DNA of 11,819 nucleotides, from the NCBI GenBank assembly GCA_964490015.1, contig CAZBBA010000102.1, positions 1 through 11,819 on the forward strand, written 5' to 3'. This DNA is from an uncultured Rikenellaceae bacterium (GTDB lineage Bacteria > Bacteroidota > Bacteroidia > Bacteroidales > Tenuifilaceae). The position numbers and the translations under genes were made by a program. This document shows, piece by piece, positions 1,945-7,908 of this stretch (position 1 is its first letter; each line of letters starts with the position of its first letter). The notes under the pieces were generated by a model. The model was not told the DNA's origin and did not search any database. It saw only the letters and a list, made by a program, of their open reading frames with translations.

Positions 1945-2577
1945 CTAACATTTCCCGGCTTGCTTAAACTTGATGGCGCAAATAACAAAATCGGTAACCT
2001 GCGCCTTGCGTTCCTCAAGAAACTTAACAAACTCCTGCTCATCGTCGTTAAAAAGCACCTTCTCCAGTAAAGGCTTTGCGGCGAATGGAAAAATACACAA
2101 GCTAAGCAGGTTGACTATAAAGTGGCGAGCACCATCGGTATCAACATTAAGCATTTCGGCTAGTTTAACAAAAGCAATTTGATGTATAAAACCAAAGTCT
2201 ACGCCCGATTTCTCAAATATTCCCTTAATATTAGCCGGATCGCGGTTTATCTCCCTTAAAATAAAAAGAGGTAAGAAAGGGTGCTTAAGGAATAAGTTAA
2301 TGTACCCATCCACAATTAGCCGAATCTTACTCTCAAAGGGTATATCCTCCGATAGAATTGCACCCGAAATGGTGGGGAACAGAAGGCCAATCTCCTTGCT
2401 AAAAATAATCTCGAAGAGTTTCTCCTTACTTCTAAAGTAGTAGTGCAGCAAAGCCTTATTAATGCCTGCCTCATCGGCAATCTCCTGCATTCGTGCGCCA
2501 TCAAGCCCTTTACGAATAAAGACCTTACGTGCAGCCTCAAGGATTATTTTCTCGGTATCCTGCTTATCATCAACCAT
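1945..2577 (-). CDS. TetR/AcrR-family transcriptional repressor
   Basis: The N-terminal HTH region reads TEKIILEAARKVFIRKGLDGARMQEIADEAGINKALLHYYFRSKEKLF, the canonical TetR signature. The track start at 2595 is TTG. The first ATG is at 2577..2575 (MVDDKQD...) and is preferred. The gene sits 40 nt upstream of tolC on the same strand. Confidence 0.85.
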   Translation of the reverse strand: MVDDKQDTEKIILEAARKVFIRKGLDGARMQEIADEAGINKALLHYYFRSKEKLFEIIFSKEIGLLFPTISGAILSEDIPFESKIRLIVDGYINLFLKHPFLPLFILREINRDPANIKGIFEKSGVDFGFIHQIAFVKLAEMLNVDTDGARHFIVNLLSLCIFPFAAKPLLEKVLFNDDEQEFVKFLEERKAQVTDFVICAIKFKQAGKC

Positions 2578-2596
2578 ATTGATTCTACTTTTCAAT

Positions 2597-2612
2597 TTAA
2601 CCGAATGGTTAA
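2597..2612. promoter_or_regulatory. Perfect palindrome TTAACCgaatGGTTAA between the tetR -7 element and the tetR start codon; putative TetR operator
   Basis: Directly read: ttaacc-gaat-ggttaa is a 6-bp inverted repeat with a 4-bp spacer, 20-35 nt upstream of the tetR ATG. Further GGTTAA/TTAACC half-sites occur at 2659-2664 and 2682-2687, and a near-palindrome aattggtaa...ttaaccaatt at 2638-2668. Confidence 0.4.
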
Positions 2613-2622
2613 ATTAGTTGGT

Positions 2623-2630
2623 CAAATATA
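2623..2630 (-). promoter_or_regulatory. Bacteroidetes-type -7 promoter element (TATATTTG on the minus strand) for tetR, with a TTTG -33-like element about 21 nt upstream
   Basis: Plus-strand caaatata is TATATTTG on the minus strand and matches the Bacteroidetes sigma-A -7 consensus TAnnTTTG. A TTTG lies 21 nt further upstream on the same strand (plus-strand caaa at about 2652-2655). The element sits just upstream of the palindromic operator and the tetR start. Confidence 0.4.
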
Positions 2631-2953
2631 CAATAATTGAATTGGTAATTCCAAATTTTTAACCAATTATTTTAACTGTATGGTTAAACTTTCAAAAATG
2701 TTAAACAACATAATCCAATAAAAATATTTTTTGTACATTGCTTAATATTTAATTAAATTTATAAATCTAATTAAATGAAGAAATCTGAGCACAAAGTTCA
2801 TACTTATAAGTAATATTGTGTGTAATGATTGAACACCACTAACAATAACTAGCATTAATAAAATAATATTTCTTTCATTTAAGCATAATACAAAAAAGGG
2901 AAAGCCGAAAACCTTATAATTAAATAGAGTAGGCAACTAAATCTTTAATTATT

Positions 2954-3634
2954 ATGGCAGTATTAATTATTTTACTAATTGTGGCAGCATTTATATATTT
3001 TAAGTGGATCAGAGATCCCAAAGAAGTAAGAGATCGCTGCAAAAACAGAAGCGAAGAGCAAAAAAAAGTTATAAGGTACTTTATGAGAGACGGTTGTCTA
3101 GCGCTCGGGCTTTTAAAAGATGAGGAATACGAAGCTTTGGTTGCTAAAAAAATCAAAAGTATGGATTTTAAACAAAAAGCTCTTAACAAAATCGGCCTAG
3201 ATGAGTCAGAACTTCAGGAAATTGAGCCAGTGAGCTTTGAGGGTTATTGGTTTGATGAGAAAAAAACGTTCTCAAAATATGGTAAAGATAAAAAATGGAG
3301 AAGTTCTGCATACCAGATTTCTTGGTTATTCTTTAGTTCCACACAAGTGTATTTATATCAATACACCTTTAATTTGGATGAAGATGGTAAAATGGAAAAA
3401 ACAGAAGAGTATTTCTATAAAGACATTACCAATTTCCAAACTATTTCCGACACCATCGAAACCCCCATTTGGGATCCAAAAAAAGATAAAAGTATTCTTG
3501 TAAATATTGACAAAAACCGCTTTGCAGTTACAGTTCCAGGAGACAAATTCCTCTGTTCCTTGGAACAAAATGATTATACTGAACGAGCTATTCAGGCAAT
3601 GAAAGCAAAATTACGTGAGAAGAAAAATGCCTAA
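2954..3634 (+). CDS. Hypothetical protein with an N-terminal transmembrane anchor; first gene of the low-GC cluster
   Basis: ATG at 2954, 226 aa. The N-terminus MAVLIILLIVAAFIYFKWI is a single hydrophobic helix, followed by a K/E-rich soluble domain with no motif I recognise. The stop at 3632-3634 is 3 nt before the next ATG, suggesting translational coupling. Confidence 0.6.
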   Translation: MAVLIILLIVAAFIYFKWIRDPKEVRDRCKNRSEEQKKVIRYFMRDGCLALGLLKDEEYEALVAKKIKSMDFKQKALNKIGLDESELQEIEPVSFEGYWFDEKKTFSKYGKDKKWRSSAYQISWLFFSSTQVYLYQYTFNLDEDGKMEKTEEYFYKDITNFQTISDTIETPIWDPKKDKSILVNIDKNRFAVTVPGDKFLCSLEQNDYTERAIQAMKAKLREKKNA

Positions 3635-3637
3635 AAA

Positions 3638-4081
3638 ATGAGCCTCGAAGTAATACCAAGCCAATGCGAACAGGTTATAGCGCGAGATTATTGTCAAAAT
3701 CACCCGTTGATTCGTCCCAAAACCAACATAATAACATTTGTACTATGGGTTTTGGCTATTGAAGTTATCTCAGTTGTAATAGCATACATTACTTTACGCC
3801 TGTTTCAATTTCTTGGTATTACTGCTTCTTTCAGCACAATGCATGCAATAACTTTTGCCATTGTTGTTATTTTTTTACTGAAAAAGATATGCGTATTGCT
3901 GATAGAGCTTTACCAACACTATGCGTTAGAAAAAACACGACGAAGATGCACAATGATGCCTTCTTGTTCTGAATATGCTTTGTTGGCTTTAAAAAAATAC
4001 AATGTTATCAGAGGATTGTACAAAACTTATATCCGATTGACAACGAAATGCAACGGAAGTTACATAACTGATTATCCATAA
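3638..4081 (+). CDS. YidD-family (PF01809, 'membrane protein insertion efficiency factor'-like) domain protein with an N-terminal membrane extension
   Basis: The C-terminal 80 aa read LIELYQHYALEKTRRRCTMMPSCSEYALLALKKYNVIRGLYKTYIRLTTKCNGSYITDYP. This matches the YidD hallmark ...YQ..IS....CRF.PTCS.YA.EA....G...G..L...RI.RCHP...G.DPVP (E. coli YidD recalled from memory). The N-terminal 67 aa add two hydrophobic helices. An alternative internal start ATG at 3839 (MHAITFAIVV...) would give a canonical ~80-aa YidD. Confidence 0.65.
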   Translation: MSLEVIPSQCEQVIARDYCQNHPLIRPKTNIITFVLWVLAIEVISVVIAYITLRLFQFLGITASFSTMHAITFAIVVIFLLKKICVLLIELYQHYALEKTRRRCTMMPSCSEYALLALKKYNVIRGLYKTYIRLTTKCNGSYITDYP

Positions 4082-4095
4082 AAAATACAATTAAC

Positions 4096-5316
4096 ATGGG
4101 AATATTTAATAAAAACCGCACTGACGGTGAAACATTTGATGGACAGGGTGAAGAAAGAAAAGGCCCTATTGATCGAATAAAATACAATGGAGAAAAAGAT
4201 GACCTTGTATGGAAATTTCCATACGATAATCTATCGACTGCTACTGAACTGACCGTAAACTTTAGTCAGGAAGCAGTTTTTGTAAAAGGTGGAGCTATTG
4301 CAGATATTTTTGGCCAGGGTCCACATACTTTAAGTACGAATAATATACCTGTTCTGCAAAAATTGATTAACTTACCTTTTGGTGGAAATACCCCTTTTAC
4401 TGCGGAGGTTTGGTTTGTTAATAAAACAATACGCCGTAACCTTAAATTTGGCACACCCGATCCATTTGATATTTACGACCCTCATTTTGATAACCCTATT
4501 CCTGTGCGTTCATATGGTGAATATGGCATTCAAATAACCGATTCCTCGGCATTCTTGCAGCAAATGGTGGGAACTTTGCACCTTTTTACAACGGAAGACA
4601 TTATTGATCAATTCAAATCATTAGTAGTACAAAAACTTAAAGACTCAATAAGTAAGTTTATTGTGAAAAAAGAGGTTACAGTTGTAAAAATCAATGCCTA
4701 TATTGATGAAGTAGCAAATTATGTTCGAGATGCAATAAATGAAGAATTTGCTCAATACGGTATTCGCATAGCAAGTTTTAATATTGCTTCAATAAGTTAT
4801 GACAAAGAAGATGAAAGGGTTAAGGAAATATTGGCTCAGGATGTTGAATTGAGAAGAGCTAAAACTAAAGCCCAAGAACGTAATGTGCAAGGTTTCACAT
4901 ATCATGACGAGCAAAAATTCGATGTATTGAAAACCGCCGCTGGCAATGAAGGGAGTGCAGGCCAAATGATGGGAGCAGGTATGGGACTTGGAATGGGCTT
5001 TGGTGTAGGAGGCGCATTTGGACAACAAATGGGAAATGTTGCAGGTGCCATGCAGCAACAGCCACAACAACAACAGCAACAACAGCAACAAACCCCACCA
5101 CCACCACCAACAGCAACTGTTTGGTTTGTATTAATAAACAATCAGCAGTATCAATACGACACTAATGCCCTTAGTCAATACATTCAAAGTGGTCAGGTAA
5201 CTCGCGACACATTAGTTTGGAAAGCGGGTATGGCACAATGGCTAAAAGCTAGCGAATGTCCTGAATTACAAGGATTGTTTGGCGCAACTCCGCCACCCCC
5301 ACCACCGAATTTATAA
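4096..5316 (+). CDS. SPFH/Band-7 'virion core protein-like' family protein (YdjI/COG4260-like) with Gly/Met-rich, polyQ and polyP linkers and a C-terminal DUF4339 (GYF-like) domain
   Basis: The N-terminus MGIF...DDLVWKFPYD...SQEAVFVKGGAIADIFGQGPHTLSTNNIPVLQKL...NTPFTAEVWFVN...KFGTPDP follows the pattern of the Bacillus YdjI SPFH family as I recall it (MGIF..TLVWRFP..SQVAVFVNEGQ..DVFGPG...PFKAEVYFVN). The middle contains GAGMGLGMGFGVGGAFGQQMGNVAGAM, then QQQPQQQQQQQQQ, then TPPPPPT. The C-terminus WFVLINNQQYQYDTNALSQYIQSGQVTRDTLVWKAGMAQWLKASECPELQGLF fits the DUF4339/GYF-like consensus (W.....G..GP.....L...G.I...TLVW..GM..W). Confidence 0.8.
   Translation: MGIFNKNRTDGETFDGQGEERKGPIDRIKYNGEKDDLVWKFPYDNLSTATELTVNFSQEAVFVKGGAIADIFGQGPHTLSTNNIPVLQKLINLPFGGNTPFTAEVWFVNKTIRRNLKFGTPDPFDIYDPHFDNPIPVRSYGEYGIQITDSSAFLQQMVGTLHLFTTEDIIDQFKSLVVQKLKDSISKFIVKKEVTVVKINAYIDEVANYVRDAINEEFAQYGIRIASFNIASISYDKEDERVKEILAQDVELRRAKTKAQERNVQGFTYHDEQKFDVLKTAAGNEGSAGQMMGAGMGLGMGFGVGGAFGQQMGNVAGAMQQQPQQQQQQQQQTPPPPPTATVWFVLINNQQYQYDTNALSQYIQSGQVTRDTLVWKAGMAQWLKASECPELQGLFGATPPPPPPNL
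5051..5110 (+). repeat. In-frame trinucleotide microsatellite: (CAA/CAG) x about 13 followed by (CCA) x 5
   Basis: Directly read: cagcaacagccacaacaacaacagcaacaacagcaacaa then accccaccaccaccaccaaca. It encodes the polyQ/polyP linker of the SPFH protein. A second proline tract, ccgccacccccaccaccg, occurs at about 5291-5308. Confidence 0.8.
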
Positions 5317-5335
5317 ACTTAAATTCCAGAATAAT

Positions 5336-6088
5336 ATGTCAAAAGTCAAACTCATAGCTAACATCATTTTGCCAATAGTGGTAATTGCAATTACTATTGT
5401 GTTGTTTTTTATGTTTAAACCAGTAGATGCAACGATACTGTTCTATCTTAACCTCGGATATCTCATATTTCTTGAGATAATTTTCTTTGGGTATCTAAAT
5501 GTTTTATACTCCAAAGTAAAAGATTTTTCAACCCCTTTTCTTGCTGTTTTTGGTATTTATGCGTTTTACTATATTGTAATAGGGGTTATTTTCATGTTAG
5601 TGTATTCACTTGCACTTTCTAACTTATTACCGTTAAAGCATTATATTGCCGCACTTATGGTGCTTACCGTACTTTGGATAATAATTTCGGTATTGACAGC
5701 TCAAGTGGACAGCAACTATAAAGGTACAGTAGATAAGCTTAAAGATGACGTGCATACTTTGAACTTCTACACACAAAAAATCAACCTACTCGCTAATCGT
5801 TATGAGAAGCTTTGTGCAGAAAGAGGCTTAAAATATGAGACAGACTCCAATAATAGAACAGTACTTGACCGCTTGAAAGGAAAATTAAGTTTTCTCACAC
5901 CTAATATCTTACATAGCGATACTGCAATTTCTCAATTAACTTCCTTGTTCAACAAATGCGAAGATATAATTGAAGAAACCGAATCTGCAACAGAAGATAA
6001 TCTTCCAGAAGTTCAGAAGAAAATGCAACGCTTTGTAGATAATGCCATAGCAGAGATTGATATGTTAAAAAATTTAACCAGAAGATAA
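5336..6088 (+). CDS. Integral membrane protein with 4 predicted TM helices and a C-terminal cytoplasmic coiled-coil domain
   Basis: The track ORF starts at 5279, but the N-terminus MAQLRHPHHRIYKLKFQNN overlaps the upstream gene. ATG at 5336 (MSKVKLIANIILPIVVIAITIVLFF...) is the more plausible start. Four hydrophobic stretches are followed by about 110 aa of K/E/L-rich heptad-like sequence. The stop at 6086-6088 is 3 nt before the next ATG. Confidence 0.65.
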   Translation: MSKVKLIANIILPIVVIAITIVLFFMFKPVDATILFYLNLGYLIFLEIIFFGYLNVLYSKVKDFSTPFLAVFGIYAFYYIVIGVIFMLVYSLALSNLLPLKHYIAALMVLTVLWIIISVLTAQVDSNYKGTVDKLKDDVHTLNFYTQKINLLANRYEKLCAERGLKYETDSNNRTVLDRLKGKLSFLTPNILHSDTAISQLTSLFNKCEDIIEETESATEDNLPEVQKKMQRFVDNAIAEIDMLKNLTRR

Positions 6089-6091
6089 ACA

Positions 6092-6709
6092 ATGGAAAAG
6101 GTTATTAAATTGAATTGCCCCGGTTGCGGAGCACCTGTTTCAACCGAACATAAAACTTGCATTTTTTGTAGTCGCCCAATCATTATCAGTACAATAACGG
6201 ACATTGTCTCAATGCCAACCCCCGAAGTGAATAAATATGCTAACGCATACCGTAAAGAGTTGGTGACTAATCCCGATAATAAAGACCTGAATATGTCTCT
6301 TGCAATGTGCTATTTCAAACTAAAAATGTATGATAAAGCTTCAGAAGTATTTGAAAAAGCCGTTGAAGATAACTTCGAGGATGCAGATAGATTCTTCTAT
6401 GCAGCAGTTAACTTGCTTAAAGGACAAAAGGCGTTTGTTACACCGCGGGCTAACATTGATAAAGCCTTGGAGTACCTAAATGCTGCTAATATGATTGAAA
6501 GCAAGGCTATTTATCATTACTTTCTGGCTTACATCAAAAAAGACTATTTTGACAGAAAATATCTTAACATTAAACCAAACTGGGAGGAGGAGTTAAATAA
6601 TGCTATCGATTTAGGTTTGACAAATGAAGAGGCCTATCAATTGTTCGAATTATTGGGAGTTGAACAACCTGAATGTTTACAATCAGCAGAGGAGGAGGAA
6701 ATAGGTTAA
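6092..6709 (+). CDS. Zinc-ribbon (CPxCG...CxxC) plus TPR-like helical-repeat protein with an acidic C-terminus
   Basis: The N-terminus MEKVIKLNCPGCGAPVSTEHKTCIFCSRP has four Cys in zinc-ribbon geometry (C-x2-C-x12-C-x2-C). The remainder (NMSLAMCYFKLKMYDKASEVFEKAVEDN...ALEYLNAANMIESKAIYHYFLAYIKK) reads as TPR-like helical hairpins. It ends ...SAEEEEIG. Confidence 0.7.
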   Translation: MEKVIKLNCPGCGAPVSTEHKTCIFCSRPIIISTITDIVSMPTPEVNKYANAYRKELVTNPDNKDLNMSLAMCYFKLKMYDKASEVFEKAVEDNFEDADRFFYAAVNLLKGQKAFVTPRANIDKALEYLNAANMIESKAIYHYFLAYIKKDYFDRKYLNIKPNWEEELNNAIDLGLTNEEAYQLFELLGVEQPECLQSAEEEEIG

Positions 6710-6741
6710 AATAGATAGTATATTAGTTGCAAAACTAAAAA

Positions 6742-6785
6742 AGCCTATTGTTGGTTGAAATTTTGAACAACCAAAAGTAGGCTTT
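6742..6785. terminator. Candidate bidirectional intrinsic terminator between convergent genes
   Basis: A 17-bp imperfect inverted repeat, aagcctattgttggttg / caaccaaaagtaggctt (15 Watson-Crick pairs, 1 G-U, 1 mismatch), with loop aaattttgaa. It is preceded by aaaaa and followed by ttaaaatt, so it is T-rich on both strands. It lies between the plus-strand stop at 6709 and the minus-strand stop at 6931. The stem is AT-rich, so confidence is moderate. Confidence 0.45.
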
Positions 6786-6930
6786 AAAATTGATGTAAAT
6801 TGGATAATACTTTTAAAGTAATAGTTTTATTTAAACTACTGTTGTTTACCCTATTGAATAAACAACGCTAGGTTTAAATATCAATTTTATGGTTTATTTC
6901 GATCATTGTAATATTACTTTTTTAGAATAG

Positions 6931-7908
6931 TCATTTAAAAACATTAACCCCTCTATCACCACCAGCAGTGGCAAATGCCCTAAACATGCCAGAGGTGTTA
7001 AACGATAGATTAACATTTCCGTACTTATCAACAGCAATAATTCCACCTCGTCCATCCACCACCTCGAGTTTTCGGTGAATCACCTCTTCGGCTGCCTTCG
7101 CTAACGATAATCCTTTGTACTCCATTAAGGCCGAGATATCGTGCGCTACGGTATAGCGAATAAAGTACTCGCCATGCCCTGTGGCCGATACGGCGCAAGT
7201 TTTATTGTTAGCATAGGTTCCTGCACCAATTATGGGCACATCGCCAACCCTGCCATAGCGTTTATTGGTCATTCCGCCGGTTGATGTGGCTGCAGCCAGA
7301 TTCCCCTGCTTATCGAGGGCTACGCAACCTACCGTTCCCATTTTCTTATCGCGCTCAAGGGCGCGCTGCAAAGCCTTCCAGCTGCGCTCTGTATAGAAAT
7401 ATGAGCTATCCACCACCTCGGCGCCATTTTGCGAAGCAAAAAGTGATGCTCCTTTTCCTACCATCAACACATGTTCCGATTTTTCCATTACCATTCGCGC
7501 TGCCGAAATGGGGTTTTTGATATCGCCAATTCCTGCAACAGCACCAGCACGTAAATCGGAGCCCACCATTATGGCAGCATCGAGTTCATTTTTTCCATCG
7601 TTGGTGAAAACTGCACCGCGACCGGCGTTGAACAAAGGGCAATCCTCGAGGTAACGGACAACCTGCTCAACGGCATCGAGGCTTGAGCCTCCATTCTTTA
7701 AAATCTCCTCACCAATTAGCAGTGCTGCAGAGAGTTCGGTTTCGTATTGATTAATCTGTTCCTCGGTGTAGTTTTCGCGACTCATTGCTCCGGCTCCACC
7801 ATGGAGGGCAATTGCCCACTCGTTAACCTTATCATTACTGATATTTTGGCACGATGCTAGAAAAAAGAGAGCAACTGTCAGAACGGAATACCATAGTTTT
7901 GTCTTCAT
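6931..7908 (-). CDS. iaaA: Isoaspartyl peptidase / L-asparaginase (Ntn-hydrolase, plant-type asparaginase family), lipoprotein precursor
   Basis: Hallmarks seen: ALHGGAGAMSRENYT, the autoproteolytic nucleophile context KKMGTVGCVALDKQGNLAAATSTGGMTNKRYGRVGDVPIIGAGTYANN, and ATGHGEYFIRYTVAHDI. The track start at 7944 is replaced by ATG at 7908 (MKTKLWYSVLTVALFFLASCQ), a signal peptide plus lipobox (LASC). Confidence 0.85.
   Translation of the reverse strand: MKTKLWYSVLTVALFFLASCQNISNDKVNEWAIALHGGAGAMSRENYTEEQINQYETELSAALLIGEEILKNGGSSLDAVEQVVRYLEDCPLFNAGRGAVFTNDGKNELDAAIMVGSDLRAGAVAGIGDIKNPISAARMVMEKSEHVLMVGKGASLFASQNGAEVVDSSYFYTERSWKALQRALERDKKMGTVGCVALDKQGNLAAATSTGGMTNKRYGRVGDVPIIGAGTYANNKTCAVSATGHGEYFIRYTVAHDISALMEYKGLSLAKAAEEVIHRKLEVVDGRGGIIAVDKYGNVNLSFNTSGMFRAFATAGGDRGVNVFK

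Follow-up and report, generated by a model that had tools for sequence, protein, structure and literature searches.

A Band_7_1 SPFH-family protein with a C-terminal GYF domain flanked by proline tracts

Results

Domain architecture of the SPFH-GYF protein

The gene at 4096..5316 of the window (the whole 11,819-nucleotide stretch of DNA that was analysed) encodes an SPFH-family scaffold of the Band_7_1, YdjI(SamI)-like type, with a C-terminal GYF domain between two proline tracts. Three public contigs carry a called gene for the identical 406-aa protein. Because the layout is common in Bacteroidota and was published in 2007, we regard the protein as an ordinary representative of a family that has received little study. 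Our overall reading, in which we have about even confidence, is that it is a cytoplasmic SPFH scaffold kept at the membrane by partner proteins and self-tethered through contacts between GYF domains and polyproline. The gene and its parts are as follows.

4096..5316, forward strand: complete SPFH(Band_7_1)-GYF_2 gene, 406 aa, ATG start (open reading frame and gene call on public contigs)
4096..4167, forward strand: hydrophilic N-terminal peptide of 24 residues, MGIFNKNRTDGETFDGQGEERKG (alignments A1 and A2)
4174..4944, forward strand: SPFH domain and the two helices after it, aa 27-283 (confident core of the AF2 model, Foldseek)
4945..5022, forward strand: Gly/Met hallmark motif, N-E-G-x2-G-x2-M-G-A-G-M-G-L-G-M-G-F-G-V-G-G-A-F-G, aa 284-309
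5023..5094, forward strand: variable linker, aa 310-333, holding the polyQ tract QQQPQ9 at aa 320-332
5095..5109, forward strand: upstream proline tract PPPPP, aa 334-338, directly before the GYF domain; candidate polyproline-II ligand or stalk
5116..5280, forward strand: GYF_2 domain, ordered over aa 341-395 in the AF2 model; beta-beta-alpha-beta plus short helices, with invariant W375, G378, W382 and F395
5290..5313, forward strand: C-terminal proline tail PPPPPP-NL, aa 399-406, with two residues between the tract and the C-terminus

Both domains named in the first-pass annotation of this DNA, an SPFH domain and a DUF4339/GYF-like domain, hold by sequence (Pfam) and by fold. Band_7_1 (PF13421) matches aa 38-241 with 158.8 bits (cutoff 24; E=1.9e-46) over profile positions 1-201 of 211, and GYF_2 (PF14237, formerly DUF4339) matches aa 343-391 with 53.8 bits (cutoff 25.8; E=1.6e-14), with the GYF fold found as well. 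Neither a missing SPFH or DUF4339 match nor a disordered C-terminal segment was observed: the Pfam matches are clear and the GYF domain is ordered in the AF2 model. The Gly/Met-rich stretch (aa ~287-312), the P5 run (aa 334-338) and the terminal PPPPPPNL (aa 399-406) are present as claimed. The Q-rich tract is also there, but not as the exact Q13 that had been reported; it reads QQQPQQQQQQQQQ, 12 Q broken by one P, at aa 320-332. The label 'virion-core-like' is a legacy COG name only, and because matches in the viral fold library were to generic Band-7 proteins only, it carries no information.

The SPFH core of the AF2 model is confident (pLDDT 80-94), and Foldseek matched the model to prohibitin, stomatin, HflK/C, flotillin and QmcA at E=1e-8 to 1e-4 with probability 1.0. 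Two helices follow the domain, at aa 240-264 and 269-283, and match by position the 'wall' and 'cap' helices of SPFH cages (domain order per PMC12344292). The predicted fold is that of the ring- or cage-forming SPFH proteins, without a membrane anchor of its own. A transmembrane (TM) scan found no 19-residue window at a Kyte-Doolittle value of 1.6; the highest value, 1.12, falls in the Gly/Met segment. With neither a TM segment nor a signal peptide found, the protein is predicted to be cytoplasmic, and the zinc ribbons that relatives carry at the adaptor position suggest the same location.

The N-terminal peptide is kept within Bacteroidota, where F4, R8, D10, G11, T13, D15-G18, R21 and G23 are retained (alignments A1 and A2). 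Matches from other phyla in tblastn and phmmer searches start at query residues ~17-28, with the peptide unaligned. It has low confidence in the AF2 model (pLDDT 41), matched no meaningful Pfam family when scanned alone at E<=10, and is possibly a short linear interaction motif.

A conserved Gly/Met motif and interchangeable adaptors

The segment after the SPFH helices had been described as a low-complexity linker, a description that the alignments overturn. Judged by sequence conservation, it is the best-conserved motif of the whole Band_7_1 family across phyla: in a cross-phylum alignment of 81 sequences G297 and G301 are invariant (1.00), and values are 0.99 at N284 and G305, 0.96 at G295, 0.95 at G299, 0.94 at M292 and 0.93 at G309. 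Glycine and hydrophobic residues alternate strictly along the motif. The pattern MGAGMG[LIM]G[ML] finds relatives in Firmicutes, Proteobacteria and Synergistota, and the post-SPFH motif is common to the GYF-type protein and the Zn-ribbon-type members. Its use as a family feature is defined in the present analysis, there being no published criterion, and the isolated motif gave no meaningful family match in Pfam at E<=10. The monomer AF2 model leaves it disordered (pLDDT <50). The motif sits where stomatin-type cages build their apical beta-barrel, and from this position and the residue pattern we infer that it may form an apical strand.

The architecture had been called unusual. It is standard in Bacteroidota, being found in 120 of 120 relatives among the matches listed, and was catalogued in 2007. 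SPFH and GYF occur together in ~35 of the 150 representative clusters examined (about a quarter of Band_7_1 representatives), and also in Verrucomicrobia, Myxococcota and Fibrobacterota. Cultivable organisms with such a gene include Segatella copri (L006), Mariniphaga anaerophila DSM 26910 (L024) and a Bacteroides (L035). After the variable linker, the adaptor is polyP-GYF_2-polyP here, 2-5 zinc ribbons in Firmicutes and a SHOCT-like tail in other lineages; comparison of these proteins indicates that Zn-ribbon, GYF and SHOCT tails replace one another as C-terminal adaptors on a conserved core. The tail of the 4096..5316 protein has no CxxC, with GYF_2 in place of the zinc ribbon(s) of the COG4260 description, and such a tail is a sub-architecture still within the SPFH family.

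The statement that COG4260 relatives carry a C-terminal zinc ribbon instead of a GYF domain was borne out, as many such proteins were recovered and YdjI is described in this way (PMC8581546). It had also been suggested that the ribbon appears here on a separate protein, at 6092-6709. That protein does carry a CxxC-x10-CxxC ribbon, but 'instead' goes too far: Firmicutes relatives have zinc ribbons of their own as well as a separate Zn-ribbon third gene, so there has been no simple relocation.

The proline tracts and the GYF domain

The linker columns (aa 310-333) contain 32-95% gaps across the family in the 81-sequence alignment. The polyQ, encoded by an imperfect CAA/CAG run at 5053-5091, is the only lineage-specific part of the tail, Q runs being limited to the closest relatives. 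P335-P338 are at least 90% conserved in alignment A2, and P399-P403 are conserved in alignments A1 and A2. When 155 GYF units were surveyed, a run of at least three prolines was present upstream in 147 (95%), always 35-40 residues ahead of the anchor Trp, and downstream in 136 (88%), and 80 proteins finish exactly 2 residues after the downstream run. Within the first 280 residues, a run of this length occurs in only 1 of 198 sequences. By these counts, the proline tracts are conserved in position beyond chance. Both GYF copies of a tandem-GYF variant (L015) retain their proline flanks, as do GYF-type loci that lack the operon protein E described below (L033, L042, L047, L077 and L081), the tail included. 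No run of at least three prolines was found in the neighbouring proteins A, B, D and E or in their ~90 homologs.

AF2 docks neither proline tract on the GYF domain confidently (pLDDT <50 for the upstream tract, ~54-71 for the tail). The eukaryotic GYF signature is W-x-Y-x(6-11)-GPF-x4-M-x2-W-x3-GYF. The canonical eukaryotic family (PF02213) gave no match at E<=0.01, and the protein has QQYQY against the QQGPY of relatives and VWK against the GYF of eukaryotes. This agrees with the report that bacterial GYF domains are without the eukaryotic triad (PMC11135422). W375 and W382 are invariant in 100 sequences and align with the Trp residues of GltJ, at the beta-sheet face that binds its ligand.

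That a GYF domain with proline tracts of its own may serve self-association or tethering, as the first-pass annotation suggested, is reasonable and restates a proposal of 2007, when an interaction of GYF domains with their flanking prolines was put forward (Balaji and Aravind 2007; PMC2034487). The idea of GYF-polyproline self-tethering is supported by the conserved flanks, by the partner proteins without proline runs and by the GYF domain of GltJ, which binds a proline-rich sequence of AglZ with micromolar affinity via the conserved beta-sheet face (PMC11135422).

Operon and conserved gene module

The SPFH-GYF gene stands third in a compact operon of five genes (A, B, SPFH-GYF, D and E, with gaps of 3, 14, 19 and 3 nt). 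The other four genes are as follows.

2954..3634, forward strand: protein A, 226 aa, first operon gene; one N-terminal TM helix (hydropathy) and a ~200-aa domain
3638..4081, forward strand: protein B, 147 aa, YidD-family paralogue; YidD domain C-terminal, at aa 82-140
5336..6088, forward strand: partner D, 250-aa membrane protein; four TM helices at aa ~6-122 (hydropathy)
6092..6709, forward strand: partner E, 205-aa soluble protein; N-terminal zinc ribbon, then TPR repeats

Protein A has no significant match in Pfam or PDB; it is present in 21 of the 21 loci with the short form of E and in 0 of the 9 loci with the long, TM-containing form. Protein B matches Pfam YidD (E=5.7e-13) and TIGR00278 (E=1.1e-12), has two extra N-terminal TM helices by hydropathy (aa 31-49 and 63-81) and lies upstream of the SPFH gene in 13 loci.

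Partner D starts at ATG 5336, not TTG 5279. It has a nearly invariant, membrane-embedded Glu47 (alignment A4) and a ~105-aa helical cytoplasmic tail. It is annotated 'hypothetical' and has no relative in Pfam or PDB; sequence searches of the PDB with D (profile) and A returned only coiled-coil noise and a weak GerD match. In 64 of 81 loci, from several phyla, the gene immediately after the SPFH gene encodes a D protein. We considered whether the cross-phylum matches were artefacts of TM composition, which was ruled out because the alignments cover the soluble tail (profile matches span model positions ~13-248) and the gene position is always the same.

The zinc ribbon of partner E is C9-x2-C12...C23-x2-C26 (CxxC-x10-CxxC, nt 6116-6169), its TPR repeats have matches in Pfam and PDB, and the CxxC pair is position-conserved in 29 of 30 homologs. 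E follows D in 31 Bacteroidota loci, and a protein with 2 TM helices and a zinc ribbon is the third gene in 34 Firmicutes loci. Compared across these loci by sequence and gene order, the conserved module is an SPFH protein, then the 4-TM protein D, then a predicted Zn-ribbon protein, with the Zn-ribbon third gene in both the Bacteroidota and Firmicutes lineages.

Neither the window nor the 14.7-kb locus contains a pspA gene, and PspA was not recurrent in the 81 loci, where no recurrent family of any kind, PspA and YdjG/H-like genes included, lies upstream of Zn-ribbon-type relatives. NfeD and FtsH were not found in the operon (Pfam, gene calls). A scan of 2400-7100 for sigma-70 promoters and terminators was not usefully above shuffled expectation, the sigma-70 model being ill-suited to Bacteroidota.

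Discussion

Comparison with known systems

YdjI (SamI), from the pspA-ydjGHI (samGHI) operon of B. subtilis, is like the SPFH-GYF protein a soluble SPFH protein without a TM anchor. The two share a plan of SPFH domain, low-complexity (Gly-rich) region and small C-terminal adaptor, and the operon of each also has genes for a multi-pass membrane protein and a Zn-ribbon protein. However, the adaptor is polyP-GYF_2-polyP here and a Zn finger in YdjI, no pspA is linked, the SPFH gene precedes D and E, and there are two extra genes, A and the YidD-like B. Partner D has no detectable relation to YdjH, which we take to be a TPM-domain protein, and E is a soluble Zn-ribbon and TPR protein whereas that of the YdjI system is a TM Zn-ribbon protein. 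Because PspA is not linked and D has no detectable relation to YdjH, the analogy with YdjI is one of architecture and module composition, not of whole-system orthology. YdjI self-interacts and is predicted to form a higher-order oligomer (PMC8581546; bioRxiv 10.64898/2026.02.06.704340). The YdjI/SamI system is further characterised by partner proteins that recruit the SPFH protein to the membrane and by a restraint on the signalling of these partners. A search of the retrieved proteins for YdjI by its primer-deduced termini (MSFFRNQL... and ...GQKLV) gave no match, YdjI is likened here by description, and the Psp phylogenomics papers do not explicitly assign it to PF13421. Zn-ribbon-type relatives are 40-48% identical to the SPFH-GYF protein, with the SPFH core and the Gly/Met hallmark in common.

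The same architecture, SPFH/Band 7 with GYF, appears in the RAGNYA fold paper (gi 32472385; Balaji and Aravind 2007; PMC2034487), which also describes bacterial GYF domains flanked by proline-rich stretches and neighbour genes for TM proteins and ZnR/TPR partners. That paper gives the architecture in a figure, without a family analysis, and as far as its text shows the Gly/Met motif, the D family and the interchange of adaptors are not described. GltJ of Myxococcus xanthus (PDB 7z3c) is a TM gliding-machinery protein with an N-terminal ZnR-linker-GYF arrangement, whereas here the GYF domain is C-terminal on an SPFH scaffold. The ligand of GltJ is a proline-rich sequence of a separate protein, AglZ, whereas the only proline tracts in the SPFH-GYF system are its own.

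In stomatin the SPFH domain is followed by a wall helix, a cap helix and a beta-strand in the apical barrel, and flotillin and HflK/C are similar (PMC12344292). The SPFH-GYF protein has the SPFH fold and helices in common with stomatin, prohibitin, flotillin, HflK/C and QmcA, and a short conserved post-cap segment at the position of their apical beta-barrel (PMC12344292). Unlike these cage-forming proteins, it lacks an N-terminal TM helix or hairpin and an NfeD or FtsH partner in its operon, its helices are much shorter (~45 residues, aa 240-283), and it has an extra C-terminal adaptor domain.

Proposed mechanism and alternatives

We propose that the SPFH-GYF protein would oligomerise as other SPFH proteins do, with the Gly/Met motif as the apical closure strand of the oligomer, by analogy with the C-terminal beta-strand of stomatin. 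D (and A/E) would keep it at the inner face of the cytoplasmic membrane, as YdjG/YdjH keep YdjI. Many GYF copies, each with two proline tracts, would be shown at the cytoplasmic apex on flexible Q-rich tethers, and the beta-sheet face that carries W375 and W382 may bind polyproline-II tracts, as does the homologous GYF domain of GltJ. Because its own flanks are the only polyproline tracts in the system, the likeliest role of the GYF domain would be multivalent, low-affinity self-tethering, either as an autoinhibitory latch in cis or in trans between protomers or neighbouring assemblies. Such self-tethering could adjust how a complex with D and E, for membrane integrity or stress signalling, is assembled.

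The tracts could instead be inert, rigid polyproline-II spacers, with the GYF domain binding the TPR and Zn-ribbon protein E, the cytoplasmic tail of D or an unlinked proline-rich protein, a form of partner tethering that we find rather doubtful. A Caballeronia SPFH-SHOCT relative has a P7 run in its linker and no GYF domain, so proline runs can be mere spacers, and AF2 leaves both tracts undocked. However, the C-terminal tract joins nothing, most members ending 2 residues past it, and a spacer role therefore leaves its 88% conservation unexplained. TPR domains commonly bind C-terminal peptides, which favours E as a receptor of the proline tail, but this candidate is weakened because the tail is kept in the GYF-type loci without E. 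Other bacteria have single proteins in which Zn ribbon, GYF and TPR are joined, and in ~44% of bacterial GYF proteins a Zn ribbon is adjacent (PMC2034487; PMC11135422), which hints at a functional coupling of the GYF domain with the ZnR-TPR protein E. The ligand of GltJ also acts in trans, but no partner protein here has a proline run and nothing points to an unlinked ligand.

Two further alternatives bear on the membrane and on the operon as a whole. The Gly/Met motif might be a glycine-zipper re-entrant or amphipathic anchor (GxxxGxxxG: G293-G297-G301-G305) that binds the membrane autonomously and places the GYF domain on its surface, which we consider quite unlikely. Glycine zippers are typical of membrane helices, Gly at i and i+4 is invariant, no other segment of the protein is as hydrophobic (Kyte-Doolittle maximum 1.12 at aa 291-309), and the motif is unstructured in the soluble monomer model. 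Its hydropathy is nevertheless well under the TM threshold, and the strict period-2 alternation of Gly and hydrophobic residues suits a beta-strand at least equally. Moreover, the post-cap segment of solved SPFH cages faces away from the membrane and builds the apical barrel (PMC12344292), and YdjI, which is described with a low-complexity region in the corresponding place, needs YdjG/H to be bound to the membrane (PMC8581546). A reading of the operon as a mobile anti-phage or conflict module, with D as a membrane effector under the control of the SPFH protein, is highly improbable. The operon GC (0.25-0.40) is below that of its flanks (0.42-0.49), D has its conserved membrane-embedded Glu, and SPFH and GYF domains occur in some conflict systems (PMC7159879). 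Against this, no integrase, transposase or tRNA is adjacent, the module is found at high identity and in the same gene order across Bacteroidota families among housekeeping genes, and the closest studied relative works in envelope-stress signalling. A PADLOC scan of all five operon proteins gave best values of only E=0.002-0.007, far below family level, and we rejected the defence-system reading because nothing matched at that level.

The reading as a self-tethering cytoplasmic scaffold could be extended across lineages, though we think the extension as a whole unlikely. The SPFH(Band_7_1) protein, the 4-TM protein D with its conserved membrane-embedded Glu and the Zn-ribbon protein would then form a widespread, PspA-independent and undescribed module for sensing membrane state in Bacteroidota and Firmicutes. 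The Gly/hydrophobic motif would close the SPFH cage, the apex would show interchangeable adaptors (Zn ribbons, GYF, SHOCT), and multivalent GYF-polyproline contacts would drive a switchable, lattice- or condensate-like membrane assembly.

As a finding in this window, the architecture is ordinary, was correctly recognised and is already catalogued; its wider value is as a pointer to the family, of which only B. subtilis YdjI/SamI has been studied so far. The SPFH-GYF protein offers a simple system for asking whether bacterial GYF domains recognise plain polyproline. For the family, testable handles are the invariant Gly/Met motif, located where cages have their closing strand, the conserved unannotated membrane partner D, the conserved Zn-ribbon third gene and the natural swap of adaptors (Zn ribbon, GYF or SHOCT), which could reveal the purpose of the C-terminal module. 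Band_7_1 SPFH proteins run to thousands, with 4915 representatives (50% identity, E<=1e-3), and gut Bacteroidota, Segatella copri among them, have them in abundance.

Domain composition and fold of the SPFH-GYF protein

The SPFH-GYF protein is encoded by a 406-aa ORF with an ATG start at window positions 4096-5316 (+), and identical copies are annotated as a gene on three contigs, one of 72 kb from an ENA metagenome and two from Logan. The order of parts described in the first-pass annotation is present in this ORF:

Start of the protein's part order: SPFH, before the Gly/Met-rich stretch (read from sequence)
aa ~287-312: Gly/Met-rich stretch (read from sequence)
aa 320-332, nt 5053-5091 (+): Q run, QQQPQQQQQQQQQ, noted earlier as Q13 but made up of 12 Q with one P interrupting
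aa 334-338: PPPPP, N-terminal of the GYF-like domain
aa 399-406: PPPPPPNL, the protein's end, C-terminal of the GYF-like domain

Pfam recovered both original domain calls far over the gathering cutoffs: SPFH as Band_7_1 (PF13421; E=1.9e-46, aa 38-241) and DUF4339 under its current name GYF_2 (PF14237; E=1.6e-14, aa 343-391). An AlphaFold2 model, for which the input alignment held 100 sequences, was confident at aa 27-283, comprising the SPFH domain and two helices, and at aa 341-395 (pLDDT ~90), where a beta-beta-alpha-beta arrangement with short helices was predicted; confidence was low at aa 1-20 and 281-338. A Foldseek search of the PDB matched the model to prohibitin, stomatin, HflK/C, flotillin and QmcA (E=1e-8 to 1e-4) and, separately, to 7z3c, the GltJ GYF domain as solved by NMR (probability 1.0, TM 0.59 on target). 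In sequence comparison the latter was also the sole significant PDB match to the family profile (E=1.2e-9 with the full-length profile, 1.7e-10 with the domain profile). The C-terminal part is therefore predicted to be ordered with a GYF fold, as first proposed. By all sequence and fold criteria tested the protein belongs to Band_7_1/COG4260 and also to bacterial GYF_2, and we regard this domain and family assignment as close to certain. The protein has neither a PF02213 match nor the G-Y-F triad; its GYF domain is of the bacterial type and differs from the canonical eukaryotic domain; the GP[YF] of relatives is YQY in the window lineage. The protein lacks a membrane anchor and is not of the anchored kind seen in flotillin, HflK/C or stomatin.

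The first 24 residues (MGIFNKNRTDGETFDGQGEERKG, window 4096-4167) are conserved in Bacteroidota, unaligned in relatives from other phyla and disordered in the model; they are possibly a short linear motif. At its very start the sequence bears a loose likeness to MSFFRNQL, the N-terminus, deduced from a published primer, of YdjI (SamI), the SPFH protein of the B. subtilis pspA-ydjGHI (samGHI) operon.

Distribution of the architecture

The architecture was initially described as unusual, a view that did not hold. A word-indexed search with the protein returned 2173 relatives (E<=1e-5), and PF13421 and PF14237 occur together in 120 of the 120 best listed, at identities down to 50%, from sources including Candidatus Azobacteroides, Symbiothrix, Prevotellaceae, Tannerella and Odoribacteraceae. 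A scan with one genome per species gave more than 535 relatives; among the best-scoring 80 loci, whose frequencies are indicative rather than a census, the GYF form is found across Bacteroidota (including Segatella copri and Mariniphaga anaerophila) and in Verrucomicrobia, Myxococcota, Fibrobacterota and Polaribacter. 'SPFH/Band 7+GYF' is a prominent bacterial GYF architecture in Balaji & Aravind 2007 (PMC2034487), where proline-rich flanks, transmembrane (TM) protein neighbours, and ZnR and TPR associations of bacterial GYF domains are also described. The architecture is already published and annotated in Pfam.

An exhaustive search of 50%-identity representatives identified 4915 family members at E<=1e-3 (511 at E<=1e-30). 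The C-termini of the best 150 of these carry zinc ribbons (~65), GYF_2 (~35) or a SHOCT-like helix pair (~25), with examples confirmed by Pfam. The SHOCT-like pair (representatives such as P0214, P0216 and P0257) is sometimes doubled, and one locus (L015:1893-3347) has a tandem double polyP-GYF-polyP on the same scaffold.

A conserved motif and a variable linker

Conservation was measured within Bacteroidota and in an 81-sequence cross-phylum alignment, and in both the best-conserved segment outside the SPFH core is the Gly/Met-rich stretch. In the 81 sequences, conservation is high just before this stretch (G266 0.99, Y269 0.99, R273 0.98, D276 0.96, A281/A282 0.95-0.96, N284 0.99) and within it (M292 0.94, G295 0.96, G297 1.00, G299 0.95, G301 1.00, G305 0.99, G309 0.93). 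Residues 293-305 alternate strictly between Gly and hydrophobic residues, and the pattern MGAGMG[LIM]G[ML] by itself recovers relatives in Firmicutes, Proteobacteria and Synergistota. A Pfam scan matched no family to the motif. The earlier description of low-complexity linkers therefore fits the polyQ part but not the Gly/Met part, where G297 and G301 are invariant: linker behaviour is limited to aa 310-333, with 32-95% gaps in the Q-run columns of the 81 sequences. PolyQ is confined to the closest relatives, at lengths of 0 to ~20 Q (e.g. P0006), and is encoded at 5053-5091 by an imperfect CAA/CAG repeat. It is an in-frame, expansion-prone tract within the sole truly variable linker of the protein.

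The SPFH-GYF operon

The SPFH-GYF gene is the third of five same-strand genes separated by gaps of 3, 14, 19 and 3 nt. The other four encode proteins A, B, D and E:

2954-3634 (+): A, one TM helix and a ~200-aa domain of no assigned family
3638-4081 (+): B, YidD paralogue (E=5.7e-13) extended at its N-terminus by two TM helices
5336-6088 (+): D, four TM helices and a ~105-aa helical cytoplasmic tail
6092-6709 (+): E, N-terminal CxxC-x10-CxxC Zn ribbon, then TPR repeats

Homolog lengths and public gene calls place the start of D at ATG 5336; the TTG 5279 start comes from a mechanical ORF list, which makes some genes too long, and overlaps the SPFH gene.

We clustered the flanking ORFs of 81 loci. 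D lies directly 3' of the SPFH gene in 64, in all phyla sampled, among them Bacteroidota, Firmicutes, Synergistota and Myxococcota. E is downstream in 31 Bacteroidota loci, and 34 Firmicutes loci (L076:8035-8628 and 33 others) have a different third gene, whose product combines two TM helices, a region weakly resembling PCI/winged-helix domains and, at the C-terminus, a Zn ribbon (CKNCGA...CEYCG). A Zn-ribbon protein is encoded downstream in the divergent GYF-type loci L042 and L077 as well. Because D and Zn-ribbon third genes recur across the clustered loci, the conserved module is SPFH protein, D and Zn-ribbon protein; A is found in 21 of the 81 loci, B in 13. The Zn ribbon indeed sits on a separate protein here, as first noted, but a simple move is too simple an account because Firmicutes carry their own Zn ribbon plus a separate one.

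Matches to D across phyla cover the soluble tail plus the TM part, with a membrane-embedded Glu47 and Thr T20 nearly invariant. We found no Pfam family, solved relative or informative name ('hypothetical') for D. Homologs include L065:7419-8117, L076:7332-8033 and L047:7210-7893.

A is present in 21/21 loci with a short soluble E (ZnR-TPR, 192-205 aa) and absent from 9/9 with a long E (560-670 aa, two TM helices; L006, L007, L011, L018, L019, L028, L037, L038, L063). This complementary presence suggests that A may supply in trans what long E has in cis. B belongs to the YidD family (membrane protein insertion efficiency factor) as a second-copy-type member, and its place ahead of the SPFH gene is conserved in 13 Bacteroidota loci.

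The closest system in working is that of YdjI, by its description, in architecture and module composition. YdjI self-interacts, restrains SamGH signalling and reaches the membrane only with YdjH and the Zn-ribbon protein YdjG, both membrane proteins (PMC8581546; bioRxiv 10.64898/2026.02.06.704340). The Firmicutes third-gene protein resembles YdjG in composition; such partner likeness is one of composition and no claim of orthology. Unlike ydjI, the SPFH-GYF gene lies outside any Psp operon, and neither PspA nor any other recurrent upstream family was found around the SPFH genes of the 81 loci.

Proline tracts and a proposed mechanism

Both proline tracts are conserved in the SPFH-GYF family. 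A P>=3 run precedes the anchor Trp by 35-40 residues in 95% of 155 GYF units and another follows the domain in 88%, with both present in 83%; the commonest protein end is exactly two residues past the second tract. Only 1/198 sequences has a P>=3 run within the first 280 residues, and the tandem-GYF variant keeps tracts around either GYF copy. No proline runs were found in any of the partner proteins or in their ~90 homologs. The homologous GltJ GYF domain binds a proline-rich sequence of AglZ with micromolar affinity; binding is through its beta-sheet face, where the best-conserved residues of bacterial GYF domains lie (PMC11135422). In stomatin, an SPFH domain, wall helix, cap helix and beta-strand follow one another in that order, the beta-strands of all subunits making up an apical barrel, and flotillin and HflK/C resemble it (PMC12344292).

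We propose that an SPFH oligomer would be held on the cytoplasmic membrane face by D (and A/E). The Gly/hydrophobic motif, right after helices 240-264 and 269-283, may supply apical closure, and the Q-rich tether would project many polyP-GYF-polyP copies into the cytoplasm. There, GYF would recognise its own proline flanks, either in cis, as a latch, or in trans, cross-linking protomers or assemblies, and could so fill the same role, whatever it is, as the tandem Zn ribbons or SHOCT helices of sister lineages. Self-recognition is the simplest reading because the system's sole proline tracts are the GYF domain's own flanks. We give the mechanism as a whole, in which we infer the binding and assembly steps, about an even chance of being correct.

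It is also conceivable, if rather doubtful, that the proline tracts are rigid spacers and that GYF has E, D or some unlinked partner as its ligand. A SHOCT-type Caballeronia relative (L039:5959-7068) has a P7 linker without GYF, and AlphaFold2 does not dock the tracts on the GYF domain; however, the terminal tract links nothing and is kept in loci without E. The Gly/Met motif is the most hydrophobic stretch of the protein and might form a glycine-zipper membrane anchor, which we consider unlikely since it falls well under TM hydropathy and YdjI is not membrane-bound autonomously. That the operon is a defence module is very improbable, as PADLOC gives no support, mobility genes are absent and synteny is conserved.

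Four aspects may be new: the invariant Gly/Met motif, together with the structural role suggested for it; the family of D; the three-way adaptor interchange (Zn ribbon/GYF/SHOCT); and the complementarity of A and long E. All four are computational results that arose in the follow-up and not in the first-pass finding.

Nucleotide composition and upstream region

The ~98-nt overlap between the TolC-like ORF (612-2042) and the TetR ORF (1945-2595) is only apparent and comes from upstream alternative starts. A sigma-70 consensus scan of the operon region gave no informative signal. GC content is 0.25-0.40 in the operon (window 2500-7000) vs 0.42-0.49 in flanking genes. The TetR gene (1945-2595, minus strand) and gene A are divergent, and the 358-nt intergenic stretch 2596-2953 that separates them, with ~0.25 GC, is likely the promoter region.
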